A DNA stretch of 64,000 bases from Omnitrophica bacterium GWA2_41_15 (GTDB lineage: Bacteria; Omnitrophota; Gorgyraeia; Ghiorseimicrobiales; Ghiorseimicrobiaceae), in the NCBI GenBank assembly GCA_919902105.1, contig CAKKQO010000035.1:67547-131546 (forward strand). The letters are read 5' to 3'. The notes beneath the pieces are model-generated. The model was not told where the DNA came from. It worked only from the letters and a program-made list of their open reading frames with translations, and did no database searches. Shown piece by piece: positions 6,536 through 59,922 of this stretch. The translations under genes were made by a program, and so were the position numbers. Position 1 is the first letter of the stretch. Each line of letters starts with the position of its first letter.

Positions 6536-6540
6536 ATATG

Positions 6541-15278: not shown

Positions 15279-15283
15279 TTAAA

Positions 15284-16405: not shown

Positions 16406-16460
16406 CTGGAGAATTTATAGCGGGCTTAAATGGACAATAGCGAATAAAGGAGCAACTTTA

Positions 16461-26982: not shown

Positions 26983-26984
26983 AG

Positions 26985-28019: not shown

Positions 28020-28025
28020 AGCGCA

Positions 28026-30595: not shown

Positions 30596-30623
30596 AGAAT
30601 AGAGTAGAAAGGAAGCATAAACA

Positions 30624-31829: not shown

Positions 31830-31841
31830 CATATTAACCCT

Positions 31842-33413: not shown

Positions 33414-33456
33414 TTAATTTTTATTTCGTGAAAGCTTTGATAAACCGATAAAAAAT

Positions 33457-34887: not shown

Positions 34888-34936
34888 GTTTTTATGATTT
34901 TTTTTCAATAATTCTTTTCAGGGATAGGCAGTGATT

Positions 34937-41680: not shown

Positions 41681-41721
41681 CGGTTAATGCAAGATTCAAC
41701 ATAGAAAAAGAGGTTTATTGC

Positions 41722-42240: not shown

Positions 42241-42249
42241 TGATCTTTT

Positions 42250-42777
42250 ATGTCTTTTGAATACGTGCAGATAATTATGCCGGTGTTGGGTTTAATTTTG
42301 AATGCTGTTACTCATATTACCAGCATGAGGATTGTTTTCAATTTAGGAGTAGCTGCTTCCATATGTTTAGGATTTATAGCCGGTTTTTTTAGTATACTAA
42401 TATTTGAGGTTTCTTTTTTAATATATATGCATGGCTCAGTAAAAGAGTTTCTTTCTATTACTATTGTTAATTTAATAAGTTACTCATCGTTAGGATTTTT
42501 GTATTGTAATTTTGTTGGGCTTGGAATATCGGCTCTGAGAACCAGATTTCTTATAGAAATGGATAAATCTGTTGGAGGCATTACCATAGAGAGATGTATA
42601 GAACGTTATTCTCCGGAAGAGATATTAGCAAGGAGGACAAAAAGATTGATTAATAGCGGCCAAATAATTTTAAAGGATGGAAGATATTATATTTGCAAAT
42701 CATACTTGTTCGTAATAGCGAAAATTATAAAGGTTATGACATTAATAGTTTTTGGTAACAAAAAAGTTGATTTATAA
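42250..42777 (+). CDS. Hypothetical membrane protein (about 3 TM helices plus a C-terminal winged-helix-like tail), paralog b
   Basis: 175 aa. Three hydrophobic segments, then ...ILARRTKRLINSGQIILKDGRYYICKSYLF. Confidence 0.55.
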   Translation: MSFEYVQIIMPVLGLILNAVTHITSMRIVFNLGVAASICLGFIAGFFSILIFEVSFLIYMHGSVKEFLSITIVNLISYSSLGFLYCNFVGLGISALRTRFLIEMDKSVGGITIERCIERYSPEEILARRTKRLINSGQIILKDGRYYICKSYLFVIAKIIKVMTLIVFGNKKVDL

Positions 42778-42778
42778 A

Positions 42779-43591
42779 ATGGATTCCAGATCGGCTGATA
42801 TATCACCGGAAGAAATTAGAAGAATTATTCTTATGCAGGCAAAACGGGCCGGAGTTGGGCATATTGGTTCTGCCCTGTCGATTGTTGATATTATAGCGGT
42901 ATTATATTCTAACATTTTACGAATTAATGATCCCAATGATCCTGATCGGGACCGTTTTATTTTATCTAAAGGCCATGCGGCAATGGCAATCTACGGGGTT
43001 CTTTTTTTGAAAGGCTGGTTAACAAAAAAGGAACTCAATACCTATTGTGCCGATGAGAGCTTGTTAGGTGTTCATCCTGAACATACCCTTAGAGGCATAG
43101 ATTTTTCAACAGGATCGCTTGGGCATGGCTTGTCAATAGGTATTGGATCGGCGTTAGCGGCAAAAAAACAGAAGTCTTCACGCCGTGTGTTTGTCTTGTT
43201 AAGCGATGCTGAGTGCAATGAAGGTTCTATCTGGGAGGCAATTATGTTTGCAGCCCACCACAAAATATCTAACTTAGTAGCTATTATTGATCTTAATGGG
43301 CAACAAGCATTCGGTTACACCAAGAACGTCTTAAATATATCTCCAATGGCAGAACGATGGCGGGTATTTGGGTGGGATGCGCATGAAGTTGACGGGCACA
43401 ATCCGCATGAGATTACAAAAACTATAAACGGTTTAGATACTGATAGTTACTCTTTTCCTCATGTAATAATTGCGCATACTACATTTGGCAAAGGGGTATC
43501 CTACATGGAAAATAAAATTAAATGGCATTACTCTTCTATGTCAGAAGAAGAGTATCAATTAGCTTTGAAGGAAAATGAAGGATTGTTATGA
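42779..43591 (+). CDS. Transketolase, N-terminal (ThDP pyrophosphate-binding) subunit
   Basis: GHIGSALSIVDI, SKGHAAMAIYG, GSLGHGLS and LLSDAECNEGSIWEA motifs. ATG at 42779 chosen over the track TTG at 42752. Confidence 0.9.
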   Translation: MDSRSADISPEEIRRIILMQAKRAGVGHIGSALSIVDIIAVLYSNILRINDPNDPDRDRFILSKGHAAMAIYGVLFLKGWLTKKELNTYCADESLLGVHPEHTLRGIDFSTGSLGHGLSIGIGSALAAKKQKSSRRVFVLLSDAECNEGSIWEAIMFAAHHKISNLVAIIDLNGQQAFGYTKNVLNISPMAERWRVFGWDAHEVDGHNPHEITKTINGLDTDSYSFPHVIIAHTTFGKGVSYMENKIKWHYSSMSEEEYQLALKENEGLL

Positions 43592-44523
43592 GAAAGGCTT
43601 TTATTGCTACGCTTGAAAAATTGGCTGAAGATAATGAACGCGTGATGCTCTTGACAGCTGATGTTGGATATTCGGTTCTAGAATCTTTTGCTGAAAAATT
43701 TCCGGATAGGTTTTATAATGTTGGAGTGGCAGAGCAGAATATGGTGGGCATTGCTACAGGCCTGGCTGAAGCAGGTTTTATCCCATTTGTCTATTCTATC
43801 GCTACATTTGTTTCTCTCAGGGCCTATGAATTTATTCGCAATGGGCCAATCTTGCATAAATATCCCGTTCGTATTATTGGCGCAGGCGGGGGGTTTGAGT
43901 ATGGACATGCTGGAATAACTCATCATGCCTTGGAAGATATAGGAGTTATGCGTTTACAGCATGGGATTACAGTAATAGCGCCCGCGGATTATAAACAAGC
44001 CAGCAATGCTTTGTTGGGCACATGGAATTTAGACGGCCCGGTTTATTACAGAATAGGCAAAGATGATAAACTTACGGTTCCCGGATTAAACGGCCGTTTT
44101 GAATTGGGCCATACCCAGCTACTTTCCAAAGGAGATGATTTGTTGTTTATAGCAATGGGGAGTATTGCTATTGAAGTGGTTAGGGCCGCGGAGATATTAA
44201 AGGGGCATGATATCAGTTGCACCGTGGTAATAGTGGCAAGCTTAGAGCCTTCGCCTATTGATGATCTGATTGAGGTTTTATCGCGTTTCAGGTTAGTATT
44301 TACGGTTGAAGCCCATTATGTTAAAGGAGGATTGGGGTCTTTGATTTCAGAGATAGTGGCTGATAATAACATTAATTGTAAGGTTAAACGATGCGGAGTA
44401 AATACAATGCCGACTGGCAGCTCAGGCAGCCAGGCCTATTATTATAAAAAATATGCGTTATCCGGCGAGATGTTGGCTGATATCGCGCTGAGAGATTTTT
44501 TACATGAAGGGAAAGAGGAGTGA
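43588..44523 (+). CDS. Transketolase, C-terminal (pyrimidine-binding) subunit
   Basis: 311 aa. VGVAEQNMVGIATGLAEAGFIPFVYSIATF motif. ATGA overlap with the N-terminal subunit gene. Confidence 0.9.
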   Translation: MRKAFIATLEKLAEDNERVMLLTADVGYSVLESFAEKFPDRFYNVGVAEQNMVGIATGLAEAGFIPFVYSIATFVSLRAYEFIRNGPILHKYPVRIIGAGGGFEYGHAGITHHALEDIGVMRLQHGITVIAPADYKQASNALLGTWNLDGPVYYRIGKDDKLTVPGLNGRFELGHTQLLSKGDDLLFIAMGSIAIEVVRAAEILKGHDISCTVVIVASLEPSPIDDLIEVLSRFRLVFTVEAHYVKGGLGSLISEIVADNNINCKVKRCGVNTMPTGSSGSQAYYYKKYALSGEMLADIALRDFLHEGKEE

Positions 44524-45470
44524 AAGATTATAGTAATGATTTAAAAAATCAACATATTGATAAAAAGGGAATCTATACTGTTCGTTTTATTTCTACTGAC
44601 TGTTTATTTTGCAAAGAAAAAAGAGAGCATGTTCTTTATCCCGCCCGTTTATATAATAATAGTTTTACTGATTATACTTTTAGCGCTAGGCGTTCACGTA
44701 AGCGGGAACATTACAGAATAGTTAAATGCAGCACTTGCCAATTGGTAAGATCGAATCCAGTGGTAAGCGAAGATATGATAGATAGTTTATATGCTCATAG
44801 CAAATTTATATTTTCAGACGAAGCGCCGTATGTTGCCAGTACTTACGCTATCTTGCTAAAAAGACTTATGAATAAGTATAATATCAAGCTAAATAGTTTA
44901 TTAGAGCTTGGATGCAGCAGCGGTTTTTTCTTGAATGAAGCCCTTTCCATTGGATTTAATGACGTTGTTGGATTTGAGCCAAGCAGAGACTGTTATCAAC
45001 GCGCGGAAGATCGTATTAAAGGGCGTATTATTAATGATATTTATAAACCTGAACTTTTAAAAGATAAAAAATTTGATTTGGTTTGTATTTTTCATCTCAT
45101 TGATCATTTATATAACCCTCAAGCTGTTATATCTTCATTAACGCAAGCCTTAAACGTTCCTCATGGATATTTACTTATAATATGCCATGATGTTGAAAGT
45201 TGGAGCGTCAAATTACTCGGTGGACAAAATCCAATGTTTGATATTGAGCATATTTATTTATTTTCTAAAAAAACAATAGCTATGCTTTTAGAAGGCGCGG
45301 GATTCAGAGTTTTAGAGGTAGAGTCGCTTCCTAATACCTATCCTTTTGGATATTGGCTGCGTATGTTACCTGCGGGGAATAAGATTGTCAGTGTATTGCC
45401 TAAGTGCATGCAAAATATACCGATAAAAATAAAAGCGGGTAATTTATATATTTTTTGCAAGAAAGGATAA
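44520..45470 (+). CDS. Class I SAM methyltransferase with an N-terminal Cys4 zinc ribbon
   Basis: 316 aa. CLFCKE...CSTCQLVRSNP, then LLELGCSSGFF. GTG start overlapping the upstream stop; the start is uncertain. Confidence 0.7.
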   Translation: MKDYSNDLKNQHIDKKGIYTVRFISTDCLFCKEKREHVLYPARLYNNSFTDYTFSARRSRKREHYRIVKCSTCQLVRSNPVVSEDMIDSLYAHSKFIFSDEAPYVASTYAILLKRLMNKYNIKLNSLLELGCSSGFFLNEALSIGFNDVVGFEPSRDCYQRAEDRIKGRIINDIYKPELLKDKKFDLVCIFHLIDHLYNPQAVISSLTQALNVPHGYLLIICHDVESWSVKLLGGQNPMFDIEHIYLFSKKTIAMLLEGAGFRVLEVESLPNTYPFGYWLRMLPAGNKIVSVLPKCMQNIPIKIKAGNLYIFCKKG

Positions 45471-45474
45471 TTTT

Positions 45475-46464
45475 ATGTTAACTGATAGATGTATTTCAGT
45501 GGTAGTTGTTTGCTATAATGATGAAGGCAGCATAGTTGAATTATTGCGGCGTCTTTCTGTGGTTATGGATAAGATTACCCCGAACTGGGAAGTAATTTAT
45601 GTTAACGATGACAGTCCGGATAACTCAGAAAAATTACTTTTGGAGTTGGCTAAAAGTAATCAGAGGTTAACGGTAATATCGCATGCGCGAAATTTTGGCG
45701 CGCAGACCGCGTTTACAACAGGGATGTCACAGGCAAGCGGAGATTCAGTAGTGATTATGGATGGTGATTTACAGGATCCTCCTGAGTTGATTGAGAAGTT
45801 TTGCGAAAAATGGTTAGAAGGATACCAAGTAGTATTCGGTATTAGGGCCAAGAGACATGAAGGTTGGTTTCGTAATTTTGGATATAGGCTTTTTTATAGG
45901 ATTTTTCAAAAGATTTCATATTTGGATATTCCACTGGATGCGGGCGAATTTTCTTTAATGGAGAGAGTAGTCATTGATGTTATTCTTGCGTGTCCGGAGC
46001 ATGATAGGCTTATCCGGGGACTCCGTGCTTATGCCGGTTTTAAGCAGGTCGGCATAGAATTTGAGAGGCCCGAGAGGTATAGCGGCCAATCCACACAGGG
46101 CCTGTTTGATTATTTTATGTGGGCGTATAAATCATTTACCTCCTTTTCACTTGTGCCGCTGCGTTTAATCTCATTACTGGCTTTTGCGACAACCATTGTA
46201 ACATTAGGGCTTTTGCTGTATCACATCTCCAATTATTTTATGGGGGTCGCGTCTCCCAAGGGGGTTATGACTATTGTCATTTTAATATTATCAATTGGTT
46301 CTATTACCATGTTTTCTCTTGGTGTAATTGGAGAATATCTGGGTAGGCTTTTTATAGAAATTAAGAATAGGCCTGAGCCCATAATTCGCACTATAGTAAA
46401 TGACCATCGTTCGGCCCCAAGGGAATGGTTGGGGCGTAAAAATTCAATTCACAGAAAGGAATAA
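45475..46464 (+). CDS. GT2 polyprenyl-phosphate glycosyltransferase (GtrB/ArnC/DPM1-like) with C-terminal TM helices
   Basis: 329 aa. VSVVVVCYNDE, YVNDDSPDNS and MDGDLQDPPELI motifs, then two C-terminal hydrophobic helices. Confidence 0.85.
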   Translation: MLTDRCISVVVVCYNDEGSIVELLRRLSVVMDKITPNWEVIYVNDDSPDNSEKLLLELAKSNQRLTVISHARNFGAQTAFTTGMSQASGDSVVIMDGDLQDPPELIEKFCEKWLEGYQVVFGIRAKRHEGWFRNFGYRLFYRIFQKISYLDIPLDAGEFSLMERVVIDVILACPEHDRLIRGLRAYAGFKQVGIEFERPERYSGQSTQGLFDYFMWAYKSFTSFSLVPLRLISLLAFATTIVTLGLLLYHISNYFMGVASPKGVMTIVILILSIGSITMFSLGVIGEYLGRLFIEIKNRPEPIIRTIVNDHRSAPREWLGRKNSIHRKE

Positions 46465-46474
46465 GACAGGCGAT

Positions 46475-47584
46475 ATGATGAACAGATCTATTAGAAGGGC
46501 GAATATACTTACCAAATTAGTATCAAAAATTTTATATGCTAAGTTAACACGGCAGAGATGCCCGATTTTTATGGGGCTATATATTACGAATAGGTGTAAT
46601 CTTCGATGTTCTTATTGCTTTGTTAACGTTGACAATCGCATGGACAATCCTTGTAGAAGGGGATTTACCAAAGATGAGATTTTTAAGCAAGTAGATGAAT
46701 TGTATGCGATGGGCATGCGATGGGTATTTATGTTGGGTGGAGAGCCGCTGGAACATGAAAATATTGGAGAGATAGTGAAATATATAACTGATAAGGGGAT
46801 ACTCCTTCATCTTCTTACTAATGGAACGCTGATTGAGCAAAAAATAGACGCAATTGAAGCAGCTGACGGGGTTTGCGTTAGTATAGATGGAGGGGAAGAA
46901 GCTACTGATAAGTTGAGGGGGAAAGGTGTTTTTCGCCGCGCGCTTAGGGGAGCAGAGATTGCGTTGTCTAGAGGTATGAATACCAGAATCCATGCTGTCC
47001 TTAATAAATACAGTTTTAATGATATGGAAATGCTTGCTAATATAGCAAGGGAAAAGGGCTTGACCATTACTCTTTCGCCTATAAATGATGCTGAGTGCAA
47101 AAATGATCCTAATAGTGAATTTGTAATGACAGATGAAGAATATAGAAATTTTTATATACAATACCGCAAACTTAAAGAAAAGGGCTATCCAATCGCAAAT
47201 TCTTATTATGCTATTGATAAGGTGATCAATTGGCCTATTGGGTATCATGAGCGCATTGCCCCTGAACAGAGCTTTCACGGTTATAAAGTCATCCCCTGTG
47301 TTATGGCAGAAACACATGCCTGCATTGATGCTGAAGGAGCAATGTTTACTTGTATTCAACAATTTATGGACGGGCTAAACATTAAAGAAGTGGGTATCAA
47401 AGAAGCATGGGATTATTTGCCCAATAAGCGTAAAAGATGTAATAGCTGCGCTTCAATGAATACTATTGAGACCGCGGCATATCTAAGGTTACGCCCTGAA
47501 ATTATCATGGAAGGGATAAAATTCTTTTTTGGGCGCAGGAAAAGCATAAGTAATGAAAAGCTCTGCCAAAAGTTACATAAGTAA
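46475..47584 (+). CDS. Radical SAM enzyme with SPASM-like C-terminal domain (type I; paralog of 26985)
   Basis: NRCNLRCSYCF, GGEPLEHENI, SIDGGEEATDKLRGKGV; C-terminal PCVMAETHACIDAEGAMFTC...CNSCAS. The ATG at 46475 is preferred over the track start 46400, which overlaps the GT2 gene. Confidence 0.8.
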   Translation: MMNRSIRRANILTKLVSKILYAKLTRQRCPIFMGLYITNRCNLRCSYCFVNVDNRMDNPCRRGFTKDEIFKQVDELYAMGMRWVFMLGGEPLEHENIGEIVKYITDKGILLHLLTNGTLIEQKIDAIEAADGVCVSIDGGEEATDKLRGKGVFRRALRGAEIALSRGMNTRIHAVLNKYSFNDMEMLANIAREKGLTITLSPINDAECKNDPNSEFVMTDEEYRNFYIQYRKLKEKGYPIANSYYAIDKVINWPIGYHERIAPEQSFHGYKVIPCVMAETHACIDAEGAMFTCIQQFMDGLNIKEVGIKEAWDYLPNKRKRCNSCASMNTIETAAYLRLRPEIIMEGIKFFFGRRKSISNEKLCQKLHK

Positions 47585-48316
47585 ATGTTAAAAAATCAAG
47601 ATATTAATTCCGCTTTTGATCAAGATGTTGAGCGTTTTGGATCCTATCAATATACAAAAGGAACACGCTATAGTACTATCATTGCGAACGAACGTTATAC
47701 GCAGATGATATTATCATCTGTTGATTTTACCGGAAAATCGGTTGTTGATATTGGCTCCGGGGATGGCACTTATACCGCTCATTTGGCCAAACGGTCTAAT
47801 GCCGCGTCTATTTTAGGCATTGAGCCGGCGCCTAAGGCTGTTGAGCGGGCGCGAGCTGTTTACGGTAATATATTTTCCAATTTGAATTTTGTTTGCGGAT
47901 ACCCCGATATATTAATAAAACAGAAAAAGAGGTTTGATATTGCTGTATATAGAGGAGTAATTCATCATATGGCCAGTCCTCGTGATGAGCTTTCAAAAGC
48001 GTTTTTATTAGCGGATACTTTGATTGTTTTAGAGCCAAATGGGCTTAATCCGCTTATGAAAATAGTTGAAAAGCTATCAAGTTATCACAAACAGCATCAG
48101 GAACGATCATTTTTGCATTATTCAATAAGCAGATGGATTACCGAGGGGGGCGGGGTAATAAAAAAAATATGTTTTTTTGGTATGGTGCCGTATTTTTGTC
48201 CTTATATCATTGCGATAGCAGGCAAATTTATAGAGCCATTTGTTGAATCGCTTCCTGTGTTACGTTCTATCTGTTGCGGGCAGTATCTCGTTGTCGCGAC
48301 AAGGGGAGGGGGATAA
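47585..48316 (+). CDS. Class I SAM methyltransferase
   Basis: 243 aa. VVDIGSGDGTY motif I and VIHHMA. Confidence 0.7.
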   Translation: MLKNQDINSAFDQDVERFGSYQYTKGTRYSTIIANERYTQMILSSVDFTGKSVVDIGSGDGTYTAHLAKRSNAASILGIEPAPKAVERARAVYGNIFSNLNFVCGYPDILIKQKKRFDIAVYRGVIHHMASPRDELSKAFLLADTLIVLEPNGLNPLMKIVEKLSSYHKQHQERSFLHYSISRWITEGGGVIKKICFFGMVPYFCPYIIAIAGKFIEPFVESLPVLRSICCGQYLVVATRGGG

Positions 48317-48320
48317 AAAA

Positions 48321-49121
48321 TTGTTTAAGGGTATTTGTGTAATAATTGGCTGTTCACGAGGGCTTGGCGCCGCATTAGTGGATGAGTTGATTAATGATGG
48401 GTGTCCTATGGTTATCGGTGTGGCTCGAACCAAATTAGAAGATATAGAACAGGGGAAAGAGTGGTTAGCCTCTAATCGCTATAAACATGTGATTGCTGAT
48501 ATTGGAGCTGAAAGTTCTGTTAATATTTTAACGAAGATATCTTTAGAATTACCTATGGAGCCGTTACTCATAATATTTAATGCCGCTTGTCTTACTTCTG
48601 ATGTTACAGCCGATAAAAGAATTAATTATGATGTTTTTAAAAAAGTCAATCGCGTTGGAGTTGATGGATTAGGTTATGTTCTTCAGTCATTTGAGGAGCA
48701 TTTATGCTTTTATGGAGGGATTTTTGTTGGAATATCTTCTACCAATGCGATTAAGCCCCCTGTTTTTGAATATAGATTGGCATATGGAGCTTCTAAGGCA
48801 TATCTTGATATGGCATTGCGAAATCTTTCTTTTTTATGGCCGCCTAAAATAAAGGTTATTAATTTTCATTTGGGGCATATAGGCGGAGGCCATGACCTTG
48901 GTTATTTACCTGTTTTCCTAAAAGCGACTTACAATTCGGCCGCAAAAAAAATTATTAGAGAAGTATCTCGTCAAAGAGTTCCTTCAGAAGTTACCTATCC
49001 AGTTATCTATCGGATAGCATACCAGTATATTTTAAAAATTATCCCCGATTCAGTTTATATCAATTGCAGCAAGTTTTTTTGTTTTTTGTTAAAGAGAGGC
49101 GCAAATAATAAGAACCGCTAA
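48321..49121 (+). CDS. Short-chain dehydrogenase/reductase (classical SDR)
   Basis: VIIGCSRGLGAAL (TGxxxGxG-like) and YGASKAYLD (YxxxK). In-frame TTG at 48321, preceded by AAGGGGAGGGGG, is chosen over the track start 48240, which overlaps the upstream gene. Confidence 0.7.
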   Translation: MFKGICVIIGCSRGLGAALVDELINDGCPMVIGVARTKLEDIEQGKEWLASNRYKHVIADIGAESSVNILTKISLELPMEPLLIIFNAACLTSDVTADKRINYDVFKKVNRVGVDGLGYVLQSFEEHLCFYGGIFVGISSTNAIKPPVFEYRLAYGASKAYLDMALRNLSFLWPPKIKVINFHLGHIGGGHDLGYLPVFLKATYNSAAKKIIREVSRQRVPSEVTYPVIYRIAYQYILKIIPDSVYINCSKFFCFLLKRGANNKNR

Positions 49122-49135
49122 CATCATAATGTCCA

Positions 49136-50584
49136 ATGAATTTAACGGATATTTTTAAATCTCAAAATAATCATATTCAAATTTTATTGATATTATCCAT
49201 AACAATAGGATTGATATATTGTTTATTTTTTCCTTCCGGCAAAATAGACGGGGATGAATTTGAGTATAATATTATAGCAAAAAATTTAGCAGAACATAAT
49301 GCCTTCTCTATGGCAGAATATCCTCCTTTTGATCCAACCAATAAGCGCGAACCTCTTTATCCATTTTTTTTATCTTTGATTTATAGGGTTTTTAGAGGCT
49401 CATTTTTTGCTGTAATGATTGCTCAAGCATTTATTTTTTCATTAACAGTCATTTTTATTTATTCATTTATTTCAAAAATAGCTGATAATAAGTCCGCGTT
49501 TTATTCATCCATATTCGTAACGGTTTGTCCGCCATTGGCAAATTATACATCCTATATTTTATCGGAAGCCCTCTTCATTTTCCTGCTGGTAGTTTTTGTA
49601 TATATATCCACTATGATGAGAGCTCATCAGACGAATAAATTATTTGTTGCCAGCGGTGTTATGTTGGGATTATTAACATTATGCAAGGCGCATATGTTAT
49701 ATTTTTTCCCTTTCTTAATCTTATGTATTATCATTTCAAAATGGGGAAAAAATATTATTCTTCCTATTCTCCTTGTCACGGTTGCTTTTTTAATTACCCT
49801 GGCGCCATGGTTAGGCAGGAATTATTATTTATTCAATACATGGAAGATAACATCGCAAAGAGCGGGTATGACGCTAAATGTTAGGGCAATGAAGGCTTCT
49901 TATAACGGGAATGATTATAAAAATGCGGCAATCTATTATTTTTCTGAGGAATTGGGAAAGATCATCTATCCTGATGCGATTATTAAAAGTGAGGCTTTTA
50001 TGAGCCAGTTCAACGTTGTTGTTGAAGGAAGAGAAGATGAAAAATATTGGAGAGATTATATAAAGGAAAAAAATTTTACTCTTAGAGAAGGCGCAATCAT
50101 AGACCTTAAAACGCAAAAGTTTACGAGAGATGGATTGTCGGAGGTTGAGATAGATAAAATACTCACCACTGAAGCCTTGCAGAAAATTAAAGCCCATCCC
50201 TTTAAATATCTGCTGCAAACCCCTTTTGAGTTAATAAAAATGACTACTTTCACATACCTGCCTTTATTAAATGAAGAATATGTGAGTTCACGAATAAATG
50301 CTGCTAATAAAAGTTTAGTTTTTTTAATAAGAAGCATAATCCGTTTAATCGCTTATCCAATTTTAGCGTTAGCTATTTATGGTATATATCGATATCGCGA
50401 TAGATGGAGAGAATTTTTGCCGATCCTATTTATTATTATATTTTTTAATTTATTCTATGGCTTAACGTTTGGTTATGCTCCCTACGCTCTTCCTCTTATG
50501 CCATTTTATATTATGTTTGCAACCATGGGATGGTTTAAATTAAGGGAGCGTAAGAATATTATCTCAGTTCAACAAAATTTGTGA
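49136..50584 (+). CDS. GT-C fold membrane glycosyltransferase (ArnT/PMT_2-like) #2
   Basis: 482 aa, polytopic. First-loop acidic motif DGDEFEY; REPLYPFFLSLIYRVF...FIYSFISKIADNKSAFYSSIFVTVCPPL is ArnT-like. Confidence 0.7.
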   Translation: MNLTDIFKSQNNHIQILLILSITIGLIYCLFFPSGKIDGDEFEYNIIAKNLAEHNAFSMAEYPPFDPTNKREPLYPFFLSLIYRVFRGSFFAVMIAQAFIFSLTVIFIYSFISKIADNKSAFYSSIFVTVCPPLANYTSYILSEALFIFLLVVFVYISTMMRAHQTNKLFVASGVMLGLLTLCKAHMLYFFPFLILCIIISKWGKNIILPILLVTVAFLITLAPWLGRNYYLFNTWKITSQRAGMTLNVRAMKASYNGNDYKNAAIYYFSEELGKIIYPDAIIKSEAFMSQFNVVVEGREDEKYWRDYIKEKNFTLREGAIIDLKTQKFTRDGLSEVEIDKILTTEALQKIKAHPFKYLLQTPFELIKMTTFTYLPLLNEEYVSSRINAANKSLVFLIRSIIRLIAYPILALAIYGIYRYRDRWREFLPILFIIIFFNLFYGLTFGYAPYALPLMPFYIMFATMGWFKLRERKNIISVQQNL

Positions 50585-51414
50585 GTTATATGATTGCACT
50601 TTATATTTTGATTTTGTTAGTTTTTTTATATTCTTTATTTATTGAGCCTCGCCATATCCTAATAAAAGAAGTATCTATTGCGGTTGATAATATTCATAAT
50701 GGCTTAGATAAAATTAAGATCATTCATATTACAGACCTGCATATTAAAAAGCTGGGTTATTTAGAAAGAAAGGTCGTAGATAGGATTAATCAGCTATCGC
50801 CTGATATATTGTTTGTTACCGGCGACTTCATCAAGAATGATGCTGGAATAAAACATTGCGCTGAAATGTTTAAAAATATAAATGCGAAGTATGGAATATA
50901 TGGAGTATTGGGGAATAATGATTATAGAAAGTTTTATATATTTCCTATAAATACTGCTGAATTAAAAAGGTCTCTTGCGGACAGTGGCGTAAAGTTACTG
51001 TTCAATGAAAGCTATACTATTAATATAGATGGAACTAATATCAACATATTTGGGGTTGAGGATTCGATTTATGGTAGTCTTGATATATCAAGATTGAGGG
51101 ATAGTGTTTTAAATAAGCATATAAACATTCTCCTTTCTCATTCTCCAGCTATCCTTAGAAATCTCAATGGTTTTAGTCCAGATTTGATTTTGACAGGGCA
51201 TACACACGGCGGCCAGGTGAGAGTTCCACTCATAGAATATTTATGGGCCCCTCTTCCCATAGGTTCTCCTCGGAAATATTGCAGAGGTTTATTTAAATTA
51301 TCAAATAAAACGAAGATTTATGTCAATCAAGGCATTGGGACGAGTTTATTGCCTGTTAGATTTTTATGTCCGCCGGAGATTTCTGTGATTAAATTAGGAA
51401 ATAATTCTCTATGA
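50581..51414 (+). CDS. Membrane-anchored calcineurin-like metallophosphoesterase
   Basis: 277 aa. N-terminal TM helix, then ITDLHI, TGDF, GNNDY, LSHSP and TGHTHGGQV motifs. Confidence 0.8.
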   Translation: MSYMIALYILILLVFLYSLFIEPRHILIKEVSIAVDNIHNGLDKIKIIHITDLHIKKLGYLERKVVDRINQLSPDILFVTGDFIKNDAGIKHCAEMFKNINAKYGIYGVLGNNDYRKFYIFPINTAELKRSLADSGVKLLFNESYTINIDGTNINIFGVEDSIYGSLDISRLRDSVLNKHINILLSHSPAILRNLNGFSPDLILTGHTHGGQVRVPLIEYLWAPLPIGSPRKYCRGLFKLSNKTKIYVNQGIGTSLLPVRFLCPPEISVIKLGNNSL

Positions 51415-52388
51415 TAGATGATTTGGAGAAAAGAAAAATGTTATTAAGCAAATATCCACTTCTTTTAATATATCGTTTGATTAGCGGTATATTTAGCTAT
51501 GATAGCAGAATAGCAAGAAGGCTTCCAAATTATTTTCCTGCATATCGGTCTTTCGGTGTGGAATTCTTAAATCAATTTCTACGATTAATCCACTCTCCTA
51601 AATCATTTTTGCCTCAAGGTATAGTAATTGAACCAACAAGCTATTGCAACCTTAGATGTAAACATTGCATTCCTCAGGCAATTAATGAAGATAGGGGTTA
51701 CATAGATTATGAACTTTACAAATACATACTTGACGATAATCCTCAGTTAACATGTTTAATACTTGCCAGAAATGGCGAACCCTTTCTTCACCCCAGAATC
51801 TTTGATTTGATCTCTTTAGCTAAAAGTAAGAATATTTATGTTTCGTTATATACGAATGGTATATTGGTGTCTGATGAAAAAGCCAATCGAATATTATCAA
51901 CAGGTTTAGATGAAATAAATTTTTCTATGGAGGATATAGAAAATGGGTATGAAAAAAATAGAGGCATTTCATATCATAAATTAAAACACAACATGGGACT
52001 TCTCATAAAAAAAAGGAATCAGATAAGGTCTTCATTAAAAATTGGAATCAATATTGCTGTTATTGAAAAGGATGACTATGCCGTAAGAGCAATACAAAAA
52101 GAATGGGATAGTCAAGTTGACCATATTGATGTTGAGCCGCTAATGGGTGAAAAGATATCGTTGAGAACAAAAAGCTGTCATACTCTGTGGAGGAATTTAG
52201 TTGTCCGGTGGAATGGAATTGTACTCCCCTGTTGTATTGATATGAATAGCACTCTTGTTATGGGAGATATTAAAAATAATTCACTTAAGGAAATTTTTAA
52301 TAGTTCAAATGCTAAAGCAATAAGGGAAAGCCATATAAAAAATAAATTTCCACCAGTATGTAAATATTGCGATGAATTTTTTGGGTGA
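51411..52388 (+). CDS. Radical SAM enzyme with SPASM-like C-terminal domain (type II; paralog of 34937)
   Basis: 325 aa. SYCNLRCKHCIP; C-terminal SCHTLWRNLVVRWNGIVLPCCIDMN...PPVCKYCDEFFG. Confidence 0.8.
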   Translation: MIDDLEKRKMLLSKYPLLLIYRLISGIFSYDSRIARRLPNYFPAYRSFGVEFLNQFLRLIHSPKSFLPQGIVIEPTSYCNLRCKHCIPQAINEDRGYIDYELYKYILDDNPQLTCLILARNGEPFLHPRIFDLISLAKSKNIYVSLYTNGILVSDEKANRILSTGLDEINFSMEDIENGYEKNRGISYHKLKHNMGLLIKKRNQIRSSLKIGINIAVIEKDDYAVRAIQKEWDSQVDHIDVEPLMGEKISLRTKSCHTLWRNLVVRWNGIVLPCCIDMNSTLVMGDIKNNSLKEIFNSSNAKAIRESHIKNKFPPVCKYCDEFFG

Positions 52389-52411
52389 TAGAACGGTTAA
52401 TTTAATCTATA

Positions 52412-53047
52412 ATGAACAGGTTTGATGGTATGGCTAAGAAAATTATCACATTTCTATCAGTTTATATATATAACTTTTTAAGATATATATTAGAAAATGG
52501 CTTTAAAAAGCAGGAACAAATTATACAAAATATATTGTTAAATAATAATCATATTGAACCAAAAATATTAGATGTGGGGTGTGGTACCGGAACTTACGCT
52601 AGTTTTTTTAAGGCAAACAATTATTTTGGCATAGAGATCGATCCAGCCTATATTAAATATGCAAAGCAACATAAGAACGGAAACTTCCTATGCGCAAATG
52701 CGCGTTATATGCCATTTAAAAGTAATACATTTGGCGCGGTATATGTTATCGCAATATTTCATCATCTATCCGCGTCTCATATAACCGATATTTTAAAGGA
52801 GCTTAAAAGAATCACTTTACCAAGGGGATTAATTCTGATTATGGACCAAAGCAATATAAAAATTAATCTTGGAGTAGATTGGTTGTTCCAGATAATCCGT
52901 TATTTTGATAAAGGAAAATTTATTCGAAAACCAAAAGAAAATCTGGATATTGTATCCATGGAACCCGATCTTACCATTACAGATGAATGGACATTTAGAA
53001 GCGGCCTGATTACCTATCAGGCGATGTTTATAAAAAAAGATGGTTGA
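52412..53047 (+). CDS. Class I SAM methyltransferase
   Basis: 211 aa. ILDVGCGTGTY motif I and IFHHLS. Confidence 0.75.
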   Translation: MNRFDGMAKKIITFLSVYIYNFLRYILENGFKKQEQIIQNILLNNNHIEPKILDVGCGTGTYASFFKANNYFGIEIDPAYIKYAKQHKNGNFLCANARYMPFKSNTFGAVYVIAIFHHLSASHITDILKELKRITLPRGLILIMDQSNIKINLGVDWLFQIIRYFDKGKFIRKPKENLDIVSMEPDLTITDEWTFRSGLITYQAMFIKKDG

Positions 53048-53783
53048 TTCTAAACTTTTAAAAATCCCCGATTATTCTATAGTGATTTTGTGTTATCAGG
53101 CAGAAGAATATTGTAGAGTATTTGTTGCCGAAGTTATTGAGAATATTAGCAAGTTGAATATAGATTATGAACTTATTTTGGTAGCAAACTATTGGGAAAA
53201 TTCAAATGATCAAACGCCGCGGATAGCACAAGAATTGAGAAATGATAATGAATATATTAAGGTGGTAGCGCTTGCTAAAAAGGGCGGCATGAGTTGGGAT
53301 ATGATAAGCGGTTTAAAGGCATGTACTGGGAGAGTAATTGCAGTTATCGATGGGGATGGGCAGATGCCAGCTTATGATTTGGTTCGTGTCTATAAAAAGT
53401 TAAAAGATGAAAACTTGGATTTTGTTAAGACATATAGAACAAAAAGAGAAGATAATTGCTATAGAAACTCCATATCAGTAGTATACAATTTTATATTTAG
53501 AATATTATTTCCAGGCCTATCAGTTCGTGATGTAAATTCTAAACCTAAAATATTTACAAGGGAGGTATATCAAAAATTAAATTTAACTTCATCTGGTTGG
53601 TTTGTTGATGCTGAAATAATGATTCAAGTCAGAAGATTGCATTTAAAAATAGGAGAAATTTCAACATTTTTTAAGCTTAATACGCGGTCATCTTATGTTA
53701 AATTTGAAGCTATATGGGAGTTTATAAAAAATCTTATTAAAGTAAGAATTTGTGAATTCAAAACAGACAAAAAGGTAAAATGA
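53040..53783 (+). CDS. GT2 glycosyltransferase (DPM1/GtrB-like catalytic domain, no C-terminal TM)
   Basis: 247 aa. YSIVILCYQAEE and IDGDGQMP motifs. Confidence 0.8.
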   Translation: MVDSKLLKIPDYSIVILCYQAEEYCRVFVAEVIENISKLNIDYELILVANYWENSNDQTPRIAQELRNDNEYIKVVALAKKGGMSWDMISGLKACTGRVIAVIDGDGQMPAYDLVRVYKKLKDENLDFVKTYRTKREDNCYRNSISVVYNFIFRILFPGLSVRDVNSKPKIFTREVYQKLNLTSSGWFVDAEIMIQVRRLHLKIGEISTFFKLNTRSSYVKFEAIWEFIKNLIKVRICEFKTDKKVK

Positions 53784-53808
53784 ATATATTGCTGACAAGA
53801 GCATGTTT

Positions 53809-55254
53809 ATGAAAATACTTTATGTCGTTAAAGATATGTCATATATTGAATTGCATGGCATTATGCAGCTTTCTGCCCTTTCAAAACAAAGGGGGCATAA
53901 GAGTTGTTTAGGGATAATTAATGAACATGATATATTAAAGGTGATTGAAAAGGAAAATCCAGATATTGTAGCATTTAGCATGCTTACTTTAGATGCGAGT
54001 TCATTTGAGAATTTGGCAAGAGATATTAAAAATAAACATAAAAATCTTACTATAATAGCGGGAGGGCCGCATGCAACCTTCAATCCTGAGATTGTAGATA
54101 CTTGGGAGGTTGATGCAATAATTTGTGGAGAAGGCGATGATGCTTTTGTAGATTTTTTAAATGCAGCTGAAGGAGGACATGATTATTCAGATATTAAAAA
54201 TTTACATACAAAGGCAAAAAAGAATCCATTACGCCCATTAATAGATAGCTTAGACAAACTTCCATTTCCTGATAGAGAATTAGTTTATTTTGAGGGCGGA
54301 CATTTACTTAATCTGAATGTTAGAACATTTATGACATCAAGAGGATGCGCCTATAGGTGCACATACTGTTTTAATAATAAATATAATATGCTATATCGCA
54401 ATAAGGGCAAAATTTTCAGAAAACGCTCTGTTGATAATGTTATTGAAGAAATCTTAAAAGTTAAAGAGAAATATCCTTTTGATTTTATTAGATTTGGAGA
54501 TGATAATTTTATATACGGAGTAGACAAATGGATGGAAGAATTTTCTGTAAAATATAAAAAAATGGTTAATCTGCCTTTTTATTGCCTAATAAGGCCAAAT
54601 CTAATTAATAATGAAGTGGTTAGGCTCTTGAGATCAACCGGATGTCATTCTATAGGCATGTCAATTGAGGCAGGTTCTGAGAGTATTAGGGAGAAGATAT
54701 TAAAGAGAGGAATGACAGATGAAGAGTTAATGAAAGCTTTTGACATCGTTCAAGGAAGCGGAATTAAGGTTTTTGCAAATAGTATAGCAGGAATTCCATT
54801 TGCAACGATTAAGGACGAAATGAAATCCATAGAATTAGCTATTAAATGCAAGCCCGCTTACCCCAATTTTACAATCTTTACCCCTTTTCCTGGTGTTGAA
54901 TTAAGTGATGTAGCTTACAAAAATAATTTAGTAAATGGTGACTTGCCTCAAAGAACAACCGATAGGTCAGTTTTGAATTGTTTTACGAAGAAAGAAAAAG
55001 ACATTCAAGAAAATATTGTTACCTTAGGCCCTCTGATTGTTAGATTTCCATTTTTAAAATTGTTTATTTTAAATCTTATAATGCACTTGCCACCGAATAG
55101 ATTATTTAGATATATTTGGGTTGTTAATAAAGGCTATTTAGGGAGTAAATATATCTGGCCTATTAAAATGGCTTTTTTATTAAAGATAAAATTGTTTTTA
55201 AAATCTTTTTTATTTGAAATACCAGAAAAACGTATTACTGAAACTCGCAGGTAG
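53809..55254 (+). CDS. Cobalamin-binding-domain (class B) radical SAM enzyme #6 (close paralog of 57037)
   Basis: MKILYVVKD... N-terminus parallels MKILFVLKE of 57037, so the ATG at 53809 is preferred over 53803. IAGGPHATF...IICGEGDDA; LPFPDREL; SRGCAYRCTYCFN. Confidence 0.85.
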   Translation: MKILYVVKDMSYIELHGIMQLSALSKQRGHKSCLGIINEHDILKVIEKENPDIVAFSMLTLDASSFENLARDIKNKHKNLTIIAGGPHATFNPEIVDTWEVDAIICGEGDDAFVDFLNAAEGGHDYSDIKNLHTKAKKNPLRPLIDSLDKLPFPDRELVYFEGGHLLNLNVRTFMTSRGCAYRCTYCFNNKYNMLYRNKGKIFRKRSVDNVIEEILKVKEKYPFDFIRFGDDNFIYGVDKWMEEFSVKYKKMVNLPFYCLIRPNLINNEVVRLLRSTGCHSIGMSIEAGSESIREKILKRGMTDEELMKAFDIVQGSGIKVFANSIAGIPFATIKDEMKSIELAIKCKPAYPNFTIFTPFPGVELSDVAYKNNLVNGDLPQRTTDRSVLNCFTKKEKDIQENIVTLGPLIVRFPFLKLFILNLIMHLPPNRLFRYIWVVNKGYLGSKYIWPIKMAFLLKIKLFLKSFLFEIPEKRITETRR

Positions 55255-55265
55255 GAGTATTAAAA

Positions 55266-57032
55266 GTGGTTACTAATAAAAGCTCAGGAATTTTGTTAAT
55301 TATTTTACTAATTTTTATATCGTTCTTATTAAGGATATGGCATATAGACTGGGGATTGCCATATATCCATAATCATGATGAGTTGAACCATATAGAACAG
55401 TCACTACAGGTCGGCTCCGGCAAACTCGAGCCTCAAGGGTTAATGCATGGTACCCTTATAACATATCTATTATCTATAGAATATGGAATTCTTTATATTT
55501 TAGGAAAAATTATAGGCAGATATTTATCAACAGATGGTTTTCTCTTATCCTATTTAACTGATCCGACAATATTTTTTATAATAGGGAGGGTTACAATAGT
55601 ATTATTGAGCGTGGGCTCTATTTTTGTTACATATTTAATAGGTAAGAAACTGTTTAATGAAAGGGTTGGAATAATATCTGCCCTATTTATAGCTTTTTCC
55701 CCTACACATTTCATAAATTCCACATGCATTAAAGATGATATACCGGCAACCTTTTTTTGCACCCTGTTCTTTTACTTTACATCTTTATATCTTTTAGCTG
55801 ACAATAGTACTTTAAAAAGGAATAGATTTTACTACGCATCCGGTTTTTTTCTTGGGTTAGCTATTGCAGCAAAATTGACCGCTATTCCGGGGATTGTTAC
55901 CTTTTGTTTGGCATTTTCCTTAAAAGAACTATCTGACTCAGAAGGATATAAAAAATATCTTATCTTTTTGTGGGATAGAAGATTTTTAAAGGGGATGCTT
56001 TTTGTCCTTACAGGTTTTTTTATAGCTGACCCTTATGCGGTCATTAATTATAAAAAATTTATCTATGGTATATTATTCATGAAAAATCAGTATATGGAAA
56101 ATGTGATAACAGTAAAAAATACTCAGATTTTCTATTTTACAAATCACCTGCCGGATATGATTGGTATCCCACTGACTATATTTTTCTGTATAAGTGTAAT
56201 ATATTTTGTTTTTAAACCTTCTAATAAATTGATTTTATTATTATCTTTTCCAGCAGTTTATTATCTGATATTTAACAAATCTACGGGTTTTGCACACCAT
56301 ATTTTAACCGCACTTCCATTTATTGTTATCCTAATCAGTGTATTTTTAGATAAAATATATTTTATTATAAATAAATGGAATATGGTCAAATCGGCAGTTG
56401 TTTTGCCTTTTTTGCTTATCTTGTTTATTACTCCCGAAGCTTTAAATACTATCAGATATATATATGTGCTTGGTAGTGCAGATACAAGGATATTGGCAAA
56501 AAAATGGATTGAAGATAATATTCCTTCCAATAAGTCTATTTTTATAGAGGGAGGGATAAAAAATCTAATTGTTTTGGGGCCTCAATTGAGAGGGAATTTA
56601 GATACCTTAAAGGATGATTTTAATTTTGTTGTTTCTAGAGGTGGAAGTGGAAAGTTACAAAAATTGCTTATTAATAGTTATAAGGATGGTGGGAAAACTT
56701 ATATGCTATATAAGGCATCACCAGAAATAAGACAAGAAGATATAGATAAATTTAATGCCGATTATATAATAACAAATGGTTTTGTAGATTTGGATGTCGG
56801 GGAATTAGAGTATTGGAGAGATGAAGGATATTATATAAGAAGAGAGGCAGTGCATAGAAAAATTAATGAAAGATATGAATTGATAAAACAGTTTAAGCCT
56901 TTTCCAAGTTTTAGCATGTATTTTCCTTTCGCAAGCCGGGATTATAATGAATTAAAGAGTATTAACTTATTTGATTGTCAGAAGGAAATAATACCAGGAC
57001 CAGAGATAAAGATATTTAAAAGGAAGACTTAA
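55266..57032 (+). CDS. GT-C fold membrane glycosyltransferase (ArnT/PMT_2-like) #3
   Basis: 588 aa. GTG start 8 nt after AGGAG. HNHDELNHIE first-loop acidic motif; GRVTIVLLSVGSIFVTYLIGKKLFNERVGIISALFIAFSPTHF. Confidence 0.7.
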   Translation: MVTNKSSGILLIILLIFISFLLRIWHIDWGLPYIHNHDELNHIEQSLQVGSGKLEPQGLMHGTLITYLLSIEYGILYILGKIIGRYLSTDGFLLSYLTDPTIFFIIGRVTIVLLSVGSIFVTYLIGKKLFNERVGIISALFIAFSPTHFINSTCIKDDIPATFFCTLFFYFTSLYLLADNSTLKRNRFYYASGFFLGLAIAAKLTAIPGIVTFCLAFSLKELSDSEGYKKYLIFLWDRRFLKGMLFVLTGFFIADPYAVINYKKFIYGILFMKNQYMENVITVKNTQIFYFTNHLPDMIGIPLTIFFCISVIYFVFKPSNKLILLLSFPAVYYLIFNKSTGFAHHILTALPFIVILISVFLDKIYFIINKWNMVKSAVVLPFLLILFITPEALNTIRYIYVLGSADTRILAKKWIEDNIPSNKSIFIEGGIKNLIVLGPQLRGNLDTLKDDFNFVVSRGGSGKLQKLLINSYKDGGKTYMLYKASPEIRQEDIDKFNADYIITNGFVDLDVGELEYWRDEGYYIRREAVHRKINERYELIKQFKPFPSFSMYFPFASRDYNELKSINLFDCQKEIIPGPEIKIFKRKT

Positions 57033-57036
57033 CAAA

Positions 57037-58482: not shown

Positions 58483-58499
58483 GATACCTCAGTTCAAAA

Positions 58500-59915: not shown

Positions 59916-59922
59916 TTATTAA

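Follow-up and report, generated by a model that had tools for sequence, protein, structure and literature searches.

Two candidate polyprenyl-phosphate-sugar cassettes with radical SAM tailoring enzymes in a surface-glycan locus of an uncultivated Omnitrophota bacterium

We analyzed a 64,000-nt stretch of DNA (positions 67,547 to 131,546 of contig CAKKQO010000035.1, assembly GCA_919902105.1), here called the window and numbered from its first nucleotide, from an uncultivated, metagenome-assembled Candidatus Omnitrophota bacterium of Hainich groundwater. Its surface-glycan locus contains two adjacent gene sets, cassette 1 (about 38550–51414) and cassette 2 (51411 to about 62044), in which glycosyltransferases (GTs) of family GT2 and of the polytopic GT-C type are encoded together with radical S-adenosylmethionine (SAM) enzymes (rSAMs) and SAM-dependent methyltransferases (MTs). 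The reading that we prefer, at slightly better than even probability, is that these are two independent three-component (Gtr/Arn-like) cassettes, each of which would tailor a sugar, load it onto undecaprenyl phosphate (Und-P) and hand it to a GT-C enzyme; the product of cassette 1 would probably be a heavily modified sugar of unfamiliar kind. A preliminary description had assigned types to eleven genes between 45475 and 57032 and read them as two iterations of one module. Pfam bore out all eleven gene types. The proposal that an rSAM/SAM-tailored polyprenyl-phosphate-sugar donor serves the GT-C enzymes gained partial support, from the enzyme classes, the GT2 subtype and the gene linkage, with no flippase family matched; the iteration did not hold. 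Window genes are named below by start coordinate, and loci in other genomes by handles such as L005 or P0133.

The cassette 1 GT2 (GT2-TM; 45475..46464, 329 aa, Glycos_transf_2 3.8e-30) had been called GtrB/ArnC-like with C-terminal transmembrane (TM) helices, and this description proved accurate. Two such helices are predicted at residues 231–274, residues 7–304 align to residues 28–326 of GtrB (5EKP, Synechocystis sll0501; E 1.4e-63) with the juxtamembrane and TM helices included, and residues 6–309 align to ArnC structures (1e-40). The protein also matches the NCBIfam models of PgfS (3e-60) and ArnC (7e-47) end to end, below cutoff. Because both equivalog cutoffs are missed (ArnC 159.9 bits against 529; PgfS 203.9 bits against 500), we regard it as a member of the same family and not as an orthologue of either. 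The cassette 2 GT2 (53040..53783, 247 aa, Glycos_transf_2 6.3e-17) is short, carries no TM helix and does not align with GtrB over its full length; its residues 13–246 align to the catalytic part of dolichol-phosphate mannose synthase (DPMS) from Pyrococcus furiosus. Seven solved structures matched it at E ≤ 0.001, and these were only P. furiosus DPMS (2e-10), ArnC (5e-9) and GtrB (4e-6); NCBIfam matches, all below cutoff, include ArnC, PgfS, AglJ and PpgS. It resembles a soluble catalytic subunit of the DPM1/PpgS type. The DxDxQxP motif occurs in both GT2s, as IMDGDLQDPP at residue 96 of 45475 and IDGDGQMP at residue 104 of 53040. Both are thus supported as putative polyprenyl-phosphate glycosyltransferases, their solved-structure matches setting them apart from processive and soluble-acceptor GT2s. 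The preliminary description had named two outcomes that would speak against its module, namely GT2s of another class and a lack of co-occurrence elsewhere; we checked for both and found GT2s of the expected type and, as described below, co-occurrence across phyla.

Tandem duplication of one module was ruled out by all-against-all BLASTP of the 58 window proteins, in which corresponding genes are not each other's closest paralogues. The two GT2s gave no match at E 1e-3, and the GT-C proteins 49136 and 55266 no mutual match. The rSAM at 46475 (rSAM1) aligned to that at 51411 (SPASM2) at 28% identity over 115 core residues only, and the methyltransferases at 47585 (MT-1) and 52430 (MT-2) at 24% identity over 96 residues. 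rSAM1 has its closest paralogue in 26961 (28%, full length) and SPASM2 in 34931; a fairly close relationship is seen only between the B12-binding rSAMs (B12-rSAMs) 53809 and 57037, with 35% identity over full length. Judged by these comparisons, the repetition is one of enzyme classes and not of descent, and the cassettes are evolutionarily independent.

The preliminary description had the gene content of its modules right and their extents wrong: its second module continues past 57032, and its first was drawn too short, omitting a split transketolase, the MT at 44520, an upstream B12-rSAM and an upstream GT-C. Because the most tightly linked partners lie outside 45475–50584, we take about 38550–51414 as the real cassette 1 unit. 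It opens with a GT-C glycosyltransferase (38550..40139, 529 aa, ten predicted TM helices, PMT_2 5.6e-8) and a B12-rSAM of class B, a putative C-methylase (40136..41680, B12-binding 8.1e-15, Radical_SAM 6.3e-16). Past two small membrane proteins (41722..42777) lie a split transketolase-like thiamine diphosphate (ThDP) enzyme (42779..44523; N subunit, TktN, 42779–43591; C subunit, TktC, 43588–44523) and a class I SAM methyltransferase of 316 aa (44520..45470, Methyltransf_23 3e-22), whose start overlaps the stop of the preceding gene and which has GT2-TM directly downstream. GT2-TM is followed by rSAM1 (46475..47584, 369 aa, Radical_SAM 8.1e-24), by the class I SAM methyltransferase MT-1 (47585..48316, 243 aa, Methyltransf_25/12/23), by a short-chain dehydrogenase/reductase (SDR; 48321..49121, 266 aa, adh_short 9.4e-13) that is a putative sugar ketoreductase, and by a second GT-C (49136..50584, 482 aa, PMT_2 1.9e-12) with eight predicted TM helices and DGDEFEY after TM1. 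The last gene encodes a calcineurin-like phosphoesterase (50581..51414, 277 aa, Metallophos 1.9e-11) anchored in the membrane by an N-terminal TM helix and LpxG/YaeI-like (NCBIfam LpxG 1.1e-44, YaeI 5.3e-33, both below cutoff), which could dephosphorylate or cleave a lipid-linked intermediate. It sits between the two cassettes; in L114, a transketolase–MT–GT2 unit is flanked by a Metallophos gene without detectable similarity to it.

As the preliminary description had proposed, GT2, rSAM and MT genes keep together in further genomes, where a GT-C or some other large polytopic protein lies close by, and they do so for both cassettes. Neighborhoods came from the encoding contigs, a single genome locus (L008) and 24 metagenome loci obtained by a C-terminal family alignment, and were annotated by BLASTP against the window proteins and by Pfam. 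For cassette 1, the co-occurrence set comprised 11 loci with about 7 kb or more of flank after dereplication at 90% identity, and the control consisted of 61 loci, each ≥10 kb long, that surround unrelated rSAM genes; these are general rSAM loci and not glycan loci. Controls were drawn from a genome-collection scan with rSAM1 patterns that returned 80 loci, one of them (L008) a true member and the other 79 used as background; as a family finder, this degenerate-pattern scan was rejected, being dominated by the generic CxxxCxxC region. GT2-TM was present in 9 of 11 long rSAM1 loci and in 0 of 61 controls (Fisher 6e-10), the 44520-type methyltransferase in at least 8 of 11 and 0 of 61 (1e-8), and the transketolase in 7 of 11 and 2 of 61 (7e-6); a B12-rSAM occurred in 13 of 22 rSAM1 loci. 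The GT2–rSAM association exceeds chance.

The families that recur, in shuffled order, are TktN/TktC, the 44520-type MT, GT2-TM, rSAM1, the 47585-type MT, SDR, B12-rSAM and a large polytopic protein. They were found in L005/L092 (Elusimicrobia), L006 and L007 (Magnetococcales), L008 (Pseudomonadota), L091, L093–L096, L107, L113, L115 and L117, in assemblies annotated as Elusimicrobia, Magnetococcales, Nitrospirota and Pseudomonadota. The order is GT-C, TktN, TktC, rSAM1, B12-rSAM, small protein, GT2-TM, MT, MT in L117; RmlB, RmlA, RmlC, TktN, TktC, MT, GT2-TM, MT, B12-rSAM, MT, small protein, rSAM1 and a 723-aa protein in L115; GT2-TM, rSAM1, MT-1, SDR in L006; and rSAM1, MT, B12-rSAM, small protein, MT-1, GT-C, GT2, TktN, TktC, GT2-TM in L005. 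MT-1 homologues (51–58% identity) directly follow rSAM1 in L006, L091, L098 and L101, with SDR homologues (41%) coming after MT-1 in L006 and L091. A 52%-identical homologue of the B12-rSAM 40136 directly adjoins an rSAM1 homologue in L110, and a full-length homologue of the GT-C 49136 stands beside the transketolase in L117 (E 6e-21) and occurs also in L005/L092. The 44520-type methyltransferase, a family of 62 members whose source annotations, where shown, are all assembled metagenome genomes, adjoins GT2 in L007, L107, L113, L114, L115 and L117, and several members share contigs with rSAM1. GT2-TM homologues with 64–68% identity occur in L007 and in metagenome contigs of unassigned taxonomy (L107, L113–L115). 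The window cassette is a mosaic: GT2-TM (64–68%) and the 44520 MT (50–55%) are nearest to one set of loci, "layout B", and the transketolase, rSAM1, MT-1 and SDR to another, "layout A". Nucleotide-sugar genes are often close by. L115 has RmlB-RmlA-RmlC, without RmlD, directly upstream of the transketolase, a set that would by its gene assignments yield dTDP-4-keto-6-deoxyhexose; epimerase/dehydratase genes adjoin the cassette in L008, L092, L093 and L117; and the window has three epimerase/dehydratase genes upstream of the cassette and RmlD downstream.

The split transketolase retains Transketolase_N (1.6e-38), Transket_pyr (6.6e-30) and Transketolase_C matches, its closest solved relative is the functional split transketolase 6YAJ (1.8e-51), and both the cofactor Glu ('VAEQN') and the Mg/ThDP Asp/Asn ('SDAECNEGS...DLNG') are kept. 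Its substrate pocket is altered. In the window TktC and 10 foreign cassette TktCs (L005, L007, L091, L093, L102, L105, L113–L115 and L117), the canonical 'ATHAG...GEDGxSHQ' is replaced by 'GxGGG(F/Y)...G..G.(T/S)H' and 'DLSxS' by 'D(L/V)G(Y/F)'; the window protein has 'GGGF..GHAG' in place of 'THAG..GEDG'. Across the 11 proteins, the canonical His and Ser are both Gly and the Asp position is variable, so that the canonical substrate residues are not preserved. We take these positions to be the sugar-phosphate-binding His461, Asp469 and Ser385 of the Escherichia coli enzyme; their loss points to a changed acceptor or donor. This pattern suggests that the cassette transketolases form a distinct, uncharacterized subfamily with a non-sugar-phosphate substrate. 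We know of no description of a split transketolase with an altered pocket in sugar branching. Other ThDP enzymes occur in related loci: in L008, a YerE-like enzyme of acetolactate-synthase type (7092–8873) replaces the transketolase between GT2 and rSAM1, and near SPASM2 homologues there is an acetolactate-synthase-type enzyme in L116 and a pyruvate dehydrogenase E1 alpha/beta pair in L088. Octoses with a two-carbon branch at C-4, known from O-antigens and antibiotics, arise by the action of a ThDP enzyme (YerE; AviB1/AviB2) and then a ketoreductase (PMC4753412).

A SPASM domain had been proposed for both rSAMs; Pfam agreed for 51411 (SPASM 2.2e-15) and gave no SPASM match for rSAM1. The latter has CNLRCSYC (CxxxCxxC) and four C-terminal cysteines, conserved in 18 of 18 aligned family members. 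Because it lacks a SPASM match and has only these four C-terminal cysteines, a twitch-like enzyme with one auxiliary cluster is suggested. An AlphaFold (AF2) model of rSAM1 (mean predicted local distance difference test score 89) was closest by Foldseek to BlsE (7VOB, E 7e-15, TM-score 0.63/0.70), a radical decarboxylase of a glucuronic-acid nucleoside; SuiB, SkfB, MoaA, CteB, the TDP-sugar enzyme DesII, anSME and viperin followed. BlsE was also the top sequence match of rSAM1 among solved structures, with an identity of only 15–20% to known sugar rSAMs. The modeled fold is consistent with a sugar substrate and does not specify the reaction. A word-indexed search found about 90 rSAM1-like proteins at ≥30% identity in assemblies of Nitrospirota, Elusimicrobia, Magnetococcales, Omnitrophica, Methanoperedens, Asgard archaea and Paceibacterota, and the family proved small also in an exhaustive search of 1.84 billion representatives, which returned 165 clusters at E ≤ 1e-30. 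The enzymes 40136, 53809 and 57037 combine B12-binding and Radical_SAM domains in class B architecture, with all NCBIfam matches below cutoff.

Cassette 2 starts with SPASM2 (51411..52388, 325 aa, Radical_SAM 1.5e-12, CNLRCKHC) and the class I SAM methyltransferase MT-2 (52430..53047, 205 aa, Methyltransf_11 1.8e-17; 52430 is the gene-caller start from L001 and 52412 an alternative), followed by the DPM1/PpgS-like GT2, a B12-rSAM (53809..55254, B12-binding 2.8e-15, Radical_SAM 4.1e-22) and a GT-C of 588 aa (55266..57032, PMT_2 4.1e-9, PMT 3.2e-6) with an HDE motif after TM1. By Pfam, a further B12-rSAM (57037–58482), a further GT-C (PMT_2, 58455–59915), a GT4 (59923–61131) and a methyltransferase (61124–62044) come next. 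The SPASM2 family has 33 members. Three of five foreign SPASM2 contexts (P0133, P0130/L116 and P0125) have a GT2 of 309–315 aa upstream with at most one gene between; that of L116, the sole context GT2 checked directly, has two C-terminal TM helices and DDDFQNPPEE. The order GT2-TM, (MT), SPASM2, B12-rSAM, SPASM rSAM recurs in P0133, P0125 and P0130, and in P0133 and P0125 it continues with a GT-C (577 and 591 aa, PMT_2/PMT), a B12-rSAM and a GT4, which matches the window order over 51411–61131. The SPASM2 locus L089 is cut by a contig end. Cassette 2 is conserved more narrowly than cassette 1 and runs past 57032. In the P0125 context, a 903-aa protein (14272–16983) has B12-binding and rSAM matches together with weak GT4 (Glycos_transf_1) matches and may be a fusion that physically links radical tailoring to glycosyl transfer. 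At L088, a SPASM2 locus of Saganbacteria, a protein of Pfam family LIC12162 (8998–10725) adjoins the SPASM2 homologue, and two window GT-Cs weakly match NCBIfam LA_3751/LA_3752; these names follow Leptospira-style locus tags, which hints at enzyme families common to the SPASM2 and window loci and Leptospira.

Altogether, the window encodes four PMT_2 GT-Cs (38550, 49136, 55266 and 58455) with 7–10 predicted TM helices each, scoring 48.1, 37.3, 44.2 and 33.6 bits against a Pfam cutoff of 26.1 (the highest for 49136, the lowest for 38550). Synthase and GT-C are encoded together in both cassettes, 45475 being flanked by 38550 and 49136, and 53040 being followed by 55266 and 58455; the same pairing occurs in L005, L093, L117, P0133 and P0125. 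The two small membrane proteins of cassette 1 (starts 41722 and 42250, 172 and 175 aa), weak flippase or regulator candidates, are paralogue-like, with three N-terminal TM helices each, a soluble tail of about 70 aa and a C-terminal 'LIN..I....GRY' common to both. They gave a very weak winged-helix match, no Pfam or NCBIfam family and no homologues in foreign cassettes. In L008, an LPG_synthase_TM protein with an MprF-like flippase domain (8998–9963) lies between GT2 and rSAM1, a plausible flippase candidate without window counterpart. Foreign cassettes also carry membrane proteins of one family, about 150 aa long and without a window member, that adjoin rSAM1 or B12-rSAM (L005:11127–11582, L007:7540–8004, L107 from 8845, L109 from 1408, L113 from 3469, L115:14970–15461 and L117:12555–13034, the L117 copy assigned by size and position only). 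These have DxDH...H.YE...DE(I/V)GNR motifs and weak YdjM-like matches, are unrelated to 41722/42250 and could be metal-dependent membrane hydrolases acting on a lipid-linked intermediate.

We infer substrates, step order, lipid carrier, flipping step and acceptor as follows. In cassette 1, a nucleoside diphosphate (NDP)-4-keto-6-deoxyhexose from the Rml- or epimerase-type enzymes encoded nearby would serve as the start, to which the non-canonical split transketolase would add a two-carbon branch. The SDR would then reduce the ketone of the branched product, and the two SAM methyltransferases, rSAM1 and the B12-rSAM would methylate or remodel it further. The finished or nearly finished sugar would be loaded onto Und-P by the GtrB-type GT2, moved across the membrane in a candidate flippase step and transferred by a GT-C to a periplasmic acceptor, candidates being O-antigen, core and other envelope glycans. 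Cassette 2 would follow the same logic with a different sugar, using its SPASM rSAM, MT, DPM1-like soluble GT2, two B12-rSAMs and two GT-Cs.

Several observations weigh against this scheme. Among the homologues retrieved, we found no cultured host with a known glycan structure: the annotated rSAM1, SPASM2 and 44520-MT homologues all come from assembled or uncultured sources, and most matches are unannotated. A sequence search of the GT-Cs against solved structures returned no detectable relative. No GtrA, SMR/ArnEF or MATE flippase family was matched among the open reading frames (ORFs) at 38–63 kb, and the sole Wzx-like gene lies far upstream of the cassettes, at 22899. The polytopic partner varies, being PMT_2 in L005/L092, L093/L095 and L117, DUF6044-like in L007 (L107 has a relative of it) and unassigned to any family in L006, L091, L104 and L115; in phmmer searches with the polytopic proteins of L006, L007, L091, L104 and L107, none matched the window GT-Cs significantly, and only those of L005/L092 and L117 were linked to them. 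L091 and L104 have no GT2-TM within reach, the transketolase–MT–GT2–MT unit of L114 stands alone, >10 kb from rSAM1, and L088 has neither GT2 nor GT-C within 8 kb.

The stage at which tailoring occurs allows a second reading, which we consider possible at well under even probability: the GT2 would load a common sugar, the transketolase, rSAM, MTs and SDR would remodel the polyprenyl-phosphate sugar on the cytoplasmic side, and flipping and GT-C transfer would follow. Such a route would parallel DprE1/DprE2, ORF13 or ArnD, with radical chemistry added. It draws on the stand-alone island L007, which has no adjoining nucleotide-sugar genes, on the overlapping starts and stops of the Tkt, MT and GT2 genes, on the small YdjM-like membrane protein that layout-B loci keep between MT and rSAM1, and on the precedent of undecaprenyl-phosphate-ribofuranose epimerization and DprE1/E2 (PMC11127046), DprE2 being of the same fold class as the cassette SDR. 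If this minority reading were correct, the polyprenyl-phosphate-linked sugar would itself be the substrate of rSAM, B12-rSAM and transketolase-type enzymes, the first radical and ThDP chemistry on a sugar bound to its lipid carrier, and would give a branched, C-methylated envelope sugar unseen before; such a lipid-stage class would span Omnitrophota, Elusimicrobia, Magnetococcales and Nitrospirota, with periplasmic installation by GT-C. Because the characterized ThDP-branching and rSAM sugar precedents, including the closest rSAM sugar enzymes BlsE and DesII, act on soluble substrates, tailoring at the nucleotide-sugar stage is somewhat more likely; moreover, none of the tailoring enzymes carries a convincing membrane anchor, and Rml genes stand directly upstream of the cassette in L115.

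Two further explanations question the linkage itself or its chemistry. Mere operon packing, in which the rSAM, MT and ThDP enzymes serve Leloir GTs (GT4, GT9) and the GT2/GT-C pair adds an ordinary hexose branch, would fit a 54-kb locus that is one array of 12 rSAMs, nine or more methyltransferases and a number of GT4/GT9 genes, as well as the variable polytopic partner and the L088 locus with SPASM2 and neither GT2 nor GT-C. We judge it improbable, since the GT2-TM family stays with Tkt, MT and rSAM1 despite shuffling, also in the L007 and L114 islands without Leloir GTs, and since the counts are 9/11 against 0/61, the latter in controls that are general rSAM loci and not glycan loci. That the rSAM/MT pairs act outside sugar chemistry, in peptide or cofactor maturation or in HpnH/HpnJ-like membrane-lipid modification, we hold to be very unlikely. 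This idea has on its side weak, sub-threshold NCBIfam matches of rSAM1 to HpnH, MftC, NirJ and AhbC/D and of the B12-rSAMs to HpnJ/HpnR and lipid B12-rSAM families, and the appearance of SuiB, SkfB and CteB, maturases of ribosomally synthesized and post-translationally modified peptides, in the Foldseek list; those NCBIfam scores lie far below the family cutoffs, however, neither short precursor-like ORFs nor hopanoid genes were seen, the conserved neighbors are all carbohydrate enzymes, and BlsE is the top match by both sequence and fold.

Both cassettes lie within a larger array, all window genes being on the (+) strand. A housekeeping part at 1–10147 encodes aminotransferases, aconitase-type subunits, a PilT-like ATPase and a biotin-synthesis cluster (BioB-like rSAM, class I/II aminotransferase, hydrolase, methyltransferase, BioD-like protein and class III aminotransferase). 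The surface-glycan locus then stretches without a break over at least 54 kb, from 10227 through the last position of the window (64000), and contains UDP-glucose dehydrogenases, epimerase/dehydratases, DegT aminotransferases, an acetyltransferase and RmlD, in addition to the Wzx-like flippase, GT4 and GT9 genes, methyltransferases and GT-C proteins already mentioned. Its 12 rSAM genes, not counting BioB at 4265, fall within about 40 kb (20184–58482), an unusual density; they start at 20184, 26961, 28026, 29087, 31842, 33457, 34931, 40136, 46475, 51411, 53809 and 57037 and divide into seven B12-binding and five SPASM- or twitch-type enzymes. The upstream set at 26961–34931, interleaved with methyltransferases and one GT9, includes the closest paralogues of rSAM1 and SPASM2. 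Between 38550 and 63021, neighboring genes overlap or lie no more than 86 nt apart in an operon-like manner, and a promoter/terminator scan gave counts no higher than in shuffled sequence, resolving no sub-operons; for these reasons, the cassettes are not visible as separate transcription units. Starting at about 0.42 across the housekeeping and early glycan genes, GC content drops steadily along the window and reaches about 0.32 over its final 14 kb, which fits a glycan locus whose distal part is mosaic or horizontally exchanged. Just upstream of cassette 1, a FemAB-like protein (35942–36940; NCBIfam pepcterm_femAB 3e-9, without Pfam match) and a partial, short DegT-like protein (37649–38584, 311 aa, with the domain matched only in the central part) are possibly involved in aminoacylation of a sugar.

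Systems of the Gtr/Arn type are a known route for the extracytoplasmic decoration of bacterial surface glycans. Three-component donors are, to our knowledge, either simple sugars or tailored only by formylation/deformylation or epimerization. Linkage of a GtrB-type synthase to a re-purposed transketolase, rSAMs and MTs would point to a chemically elaborate donor sugar not yet described, and new enzymatic reactions may be involved. The preliminary description knew of no described module that couples a GT2/GT-C pair to an rSAM–methyltransferase dyad; literature searches, including ones on transketolase, O-antigen and Omnitrophota, are in agreement, having returned neither such a cassette nor any account of rSAM or transketolase genes joined to a GtrB/GT-C pair. 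With 12 rSAM genes in one locus, envelope-glycan diversity in anaerobic 'dark-matter' phyla may rely heavily on radical chemistry, and the compact cassettes of L117 and L007, together with the defined families, offer material for expression and assay.

In Gtr systems, GtrA is the flippase, GtrB the Und-P-glucose synthase and GtrC the GT-C enzyme, and plain glucose is added. Cassette 1 resembles these systems (GtrA/GtrB/GtrC), as well as CsbB/YfhO and PgfS, in the full-length GtrB/PgfS match of 45475, TM helices included, in the GT-Cs beside it and in the expected logic of cytoplasmic loading on polyprenyl phosphate before periplasmic transfer; it differs from Gtr in having no GtrA-like flippase match and in its ThDP, rSAM, B12-rSAM, MT and SDR genes, which are absent from Gtr systems. 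The Arn pathway modifies lipid A with L-Ara4N and tailors its sugar both before loading (ArnA/ArnB) and on the lipid (ArnD). An ArnC-like GT2 (1e-40) and ArnT-like PMT_2 GT-Cs recall it, and epimerase/dehydratase, GT2 and DegT genes in a row in L008 resemble ArnA/C/B. The window differs in its ArnC equivalog score (160 against 529 bits), in its other tailoring chemistry and in containing no ArnA, ArnD, ArnE or ArnF homologues.

The nearest precedents for tailoring come from elsewhere. For rSAM chemistry, the comparison is with BlsE, DesII, BtrN and GenK/GenD1: rSAM1 is nearest to BlsE, and the window B12-rSAMs share the class B architecture, whereas those enzymes belong to antibiotic pathways and show 15–20% identity to rSAM1. 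We know of no BlsE/DesII-type rSAM sugar enzyme from three-component envelope glycosylation. The octose pathways (YerE/YerF of yersiniose, AviB1/AviB2, and Pau11 with the Pau7 ketoreductase; PMC4753412) share with the cassettes a ThDP enzyme, a ketoreductase and MTs near NDP-4-keto-6-deoxyhexose genes, and related loci carry ThDP enzymes of YerE type (L008, L116) or E1 alpha/beta type (L088); these pathways feed Leloir GTs rather than a GtrB/GT-C pair, however, and the window ThDP enzyme is a split transketolase with altered pocket. Pentofuranose three-component systems and mycobacterial decaprenyl-phosphoarabinose synthesis combine PPPRS, a phosphatase, a DprE1/E2 or ORF13 epimerase and a GT-C (Kelly et al. 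2024, PMC11127046), and Kelly et al. stated that no other epimerases were known to them in O-polysaccharide side-chain glycosylation systems (PMC11127046). The likeness lies in auxiliary enzymes that diversify a lipid-linked donor, the window too having an SDR and a phosphoesterase; those systems use a UbiA-like synthase with phosphoribosyl pyrophosphate and epimerization as their sole tailoring, with no rSAM, B12 or ThDP enzyme, where the window has a GT2 and a putative NDP-sugar donor. The cassettes thus bring a tailoring set not reported for such systems and, as far as gene content indicates, would work like the Gtr, Arn and pentofuranose systems.

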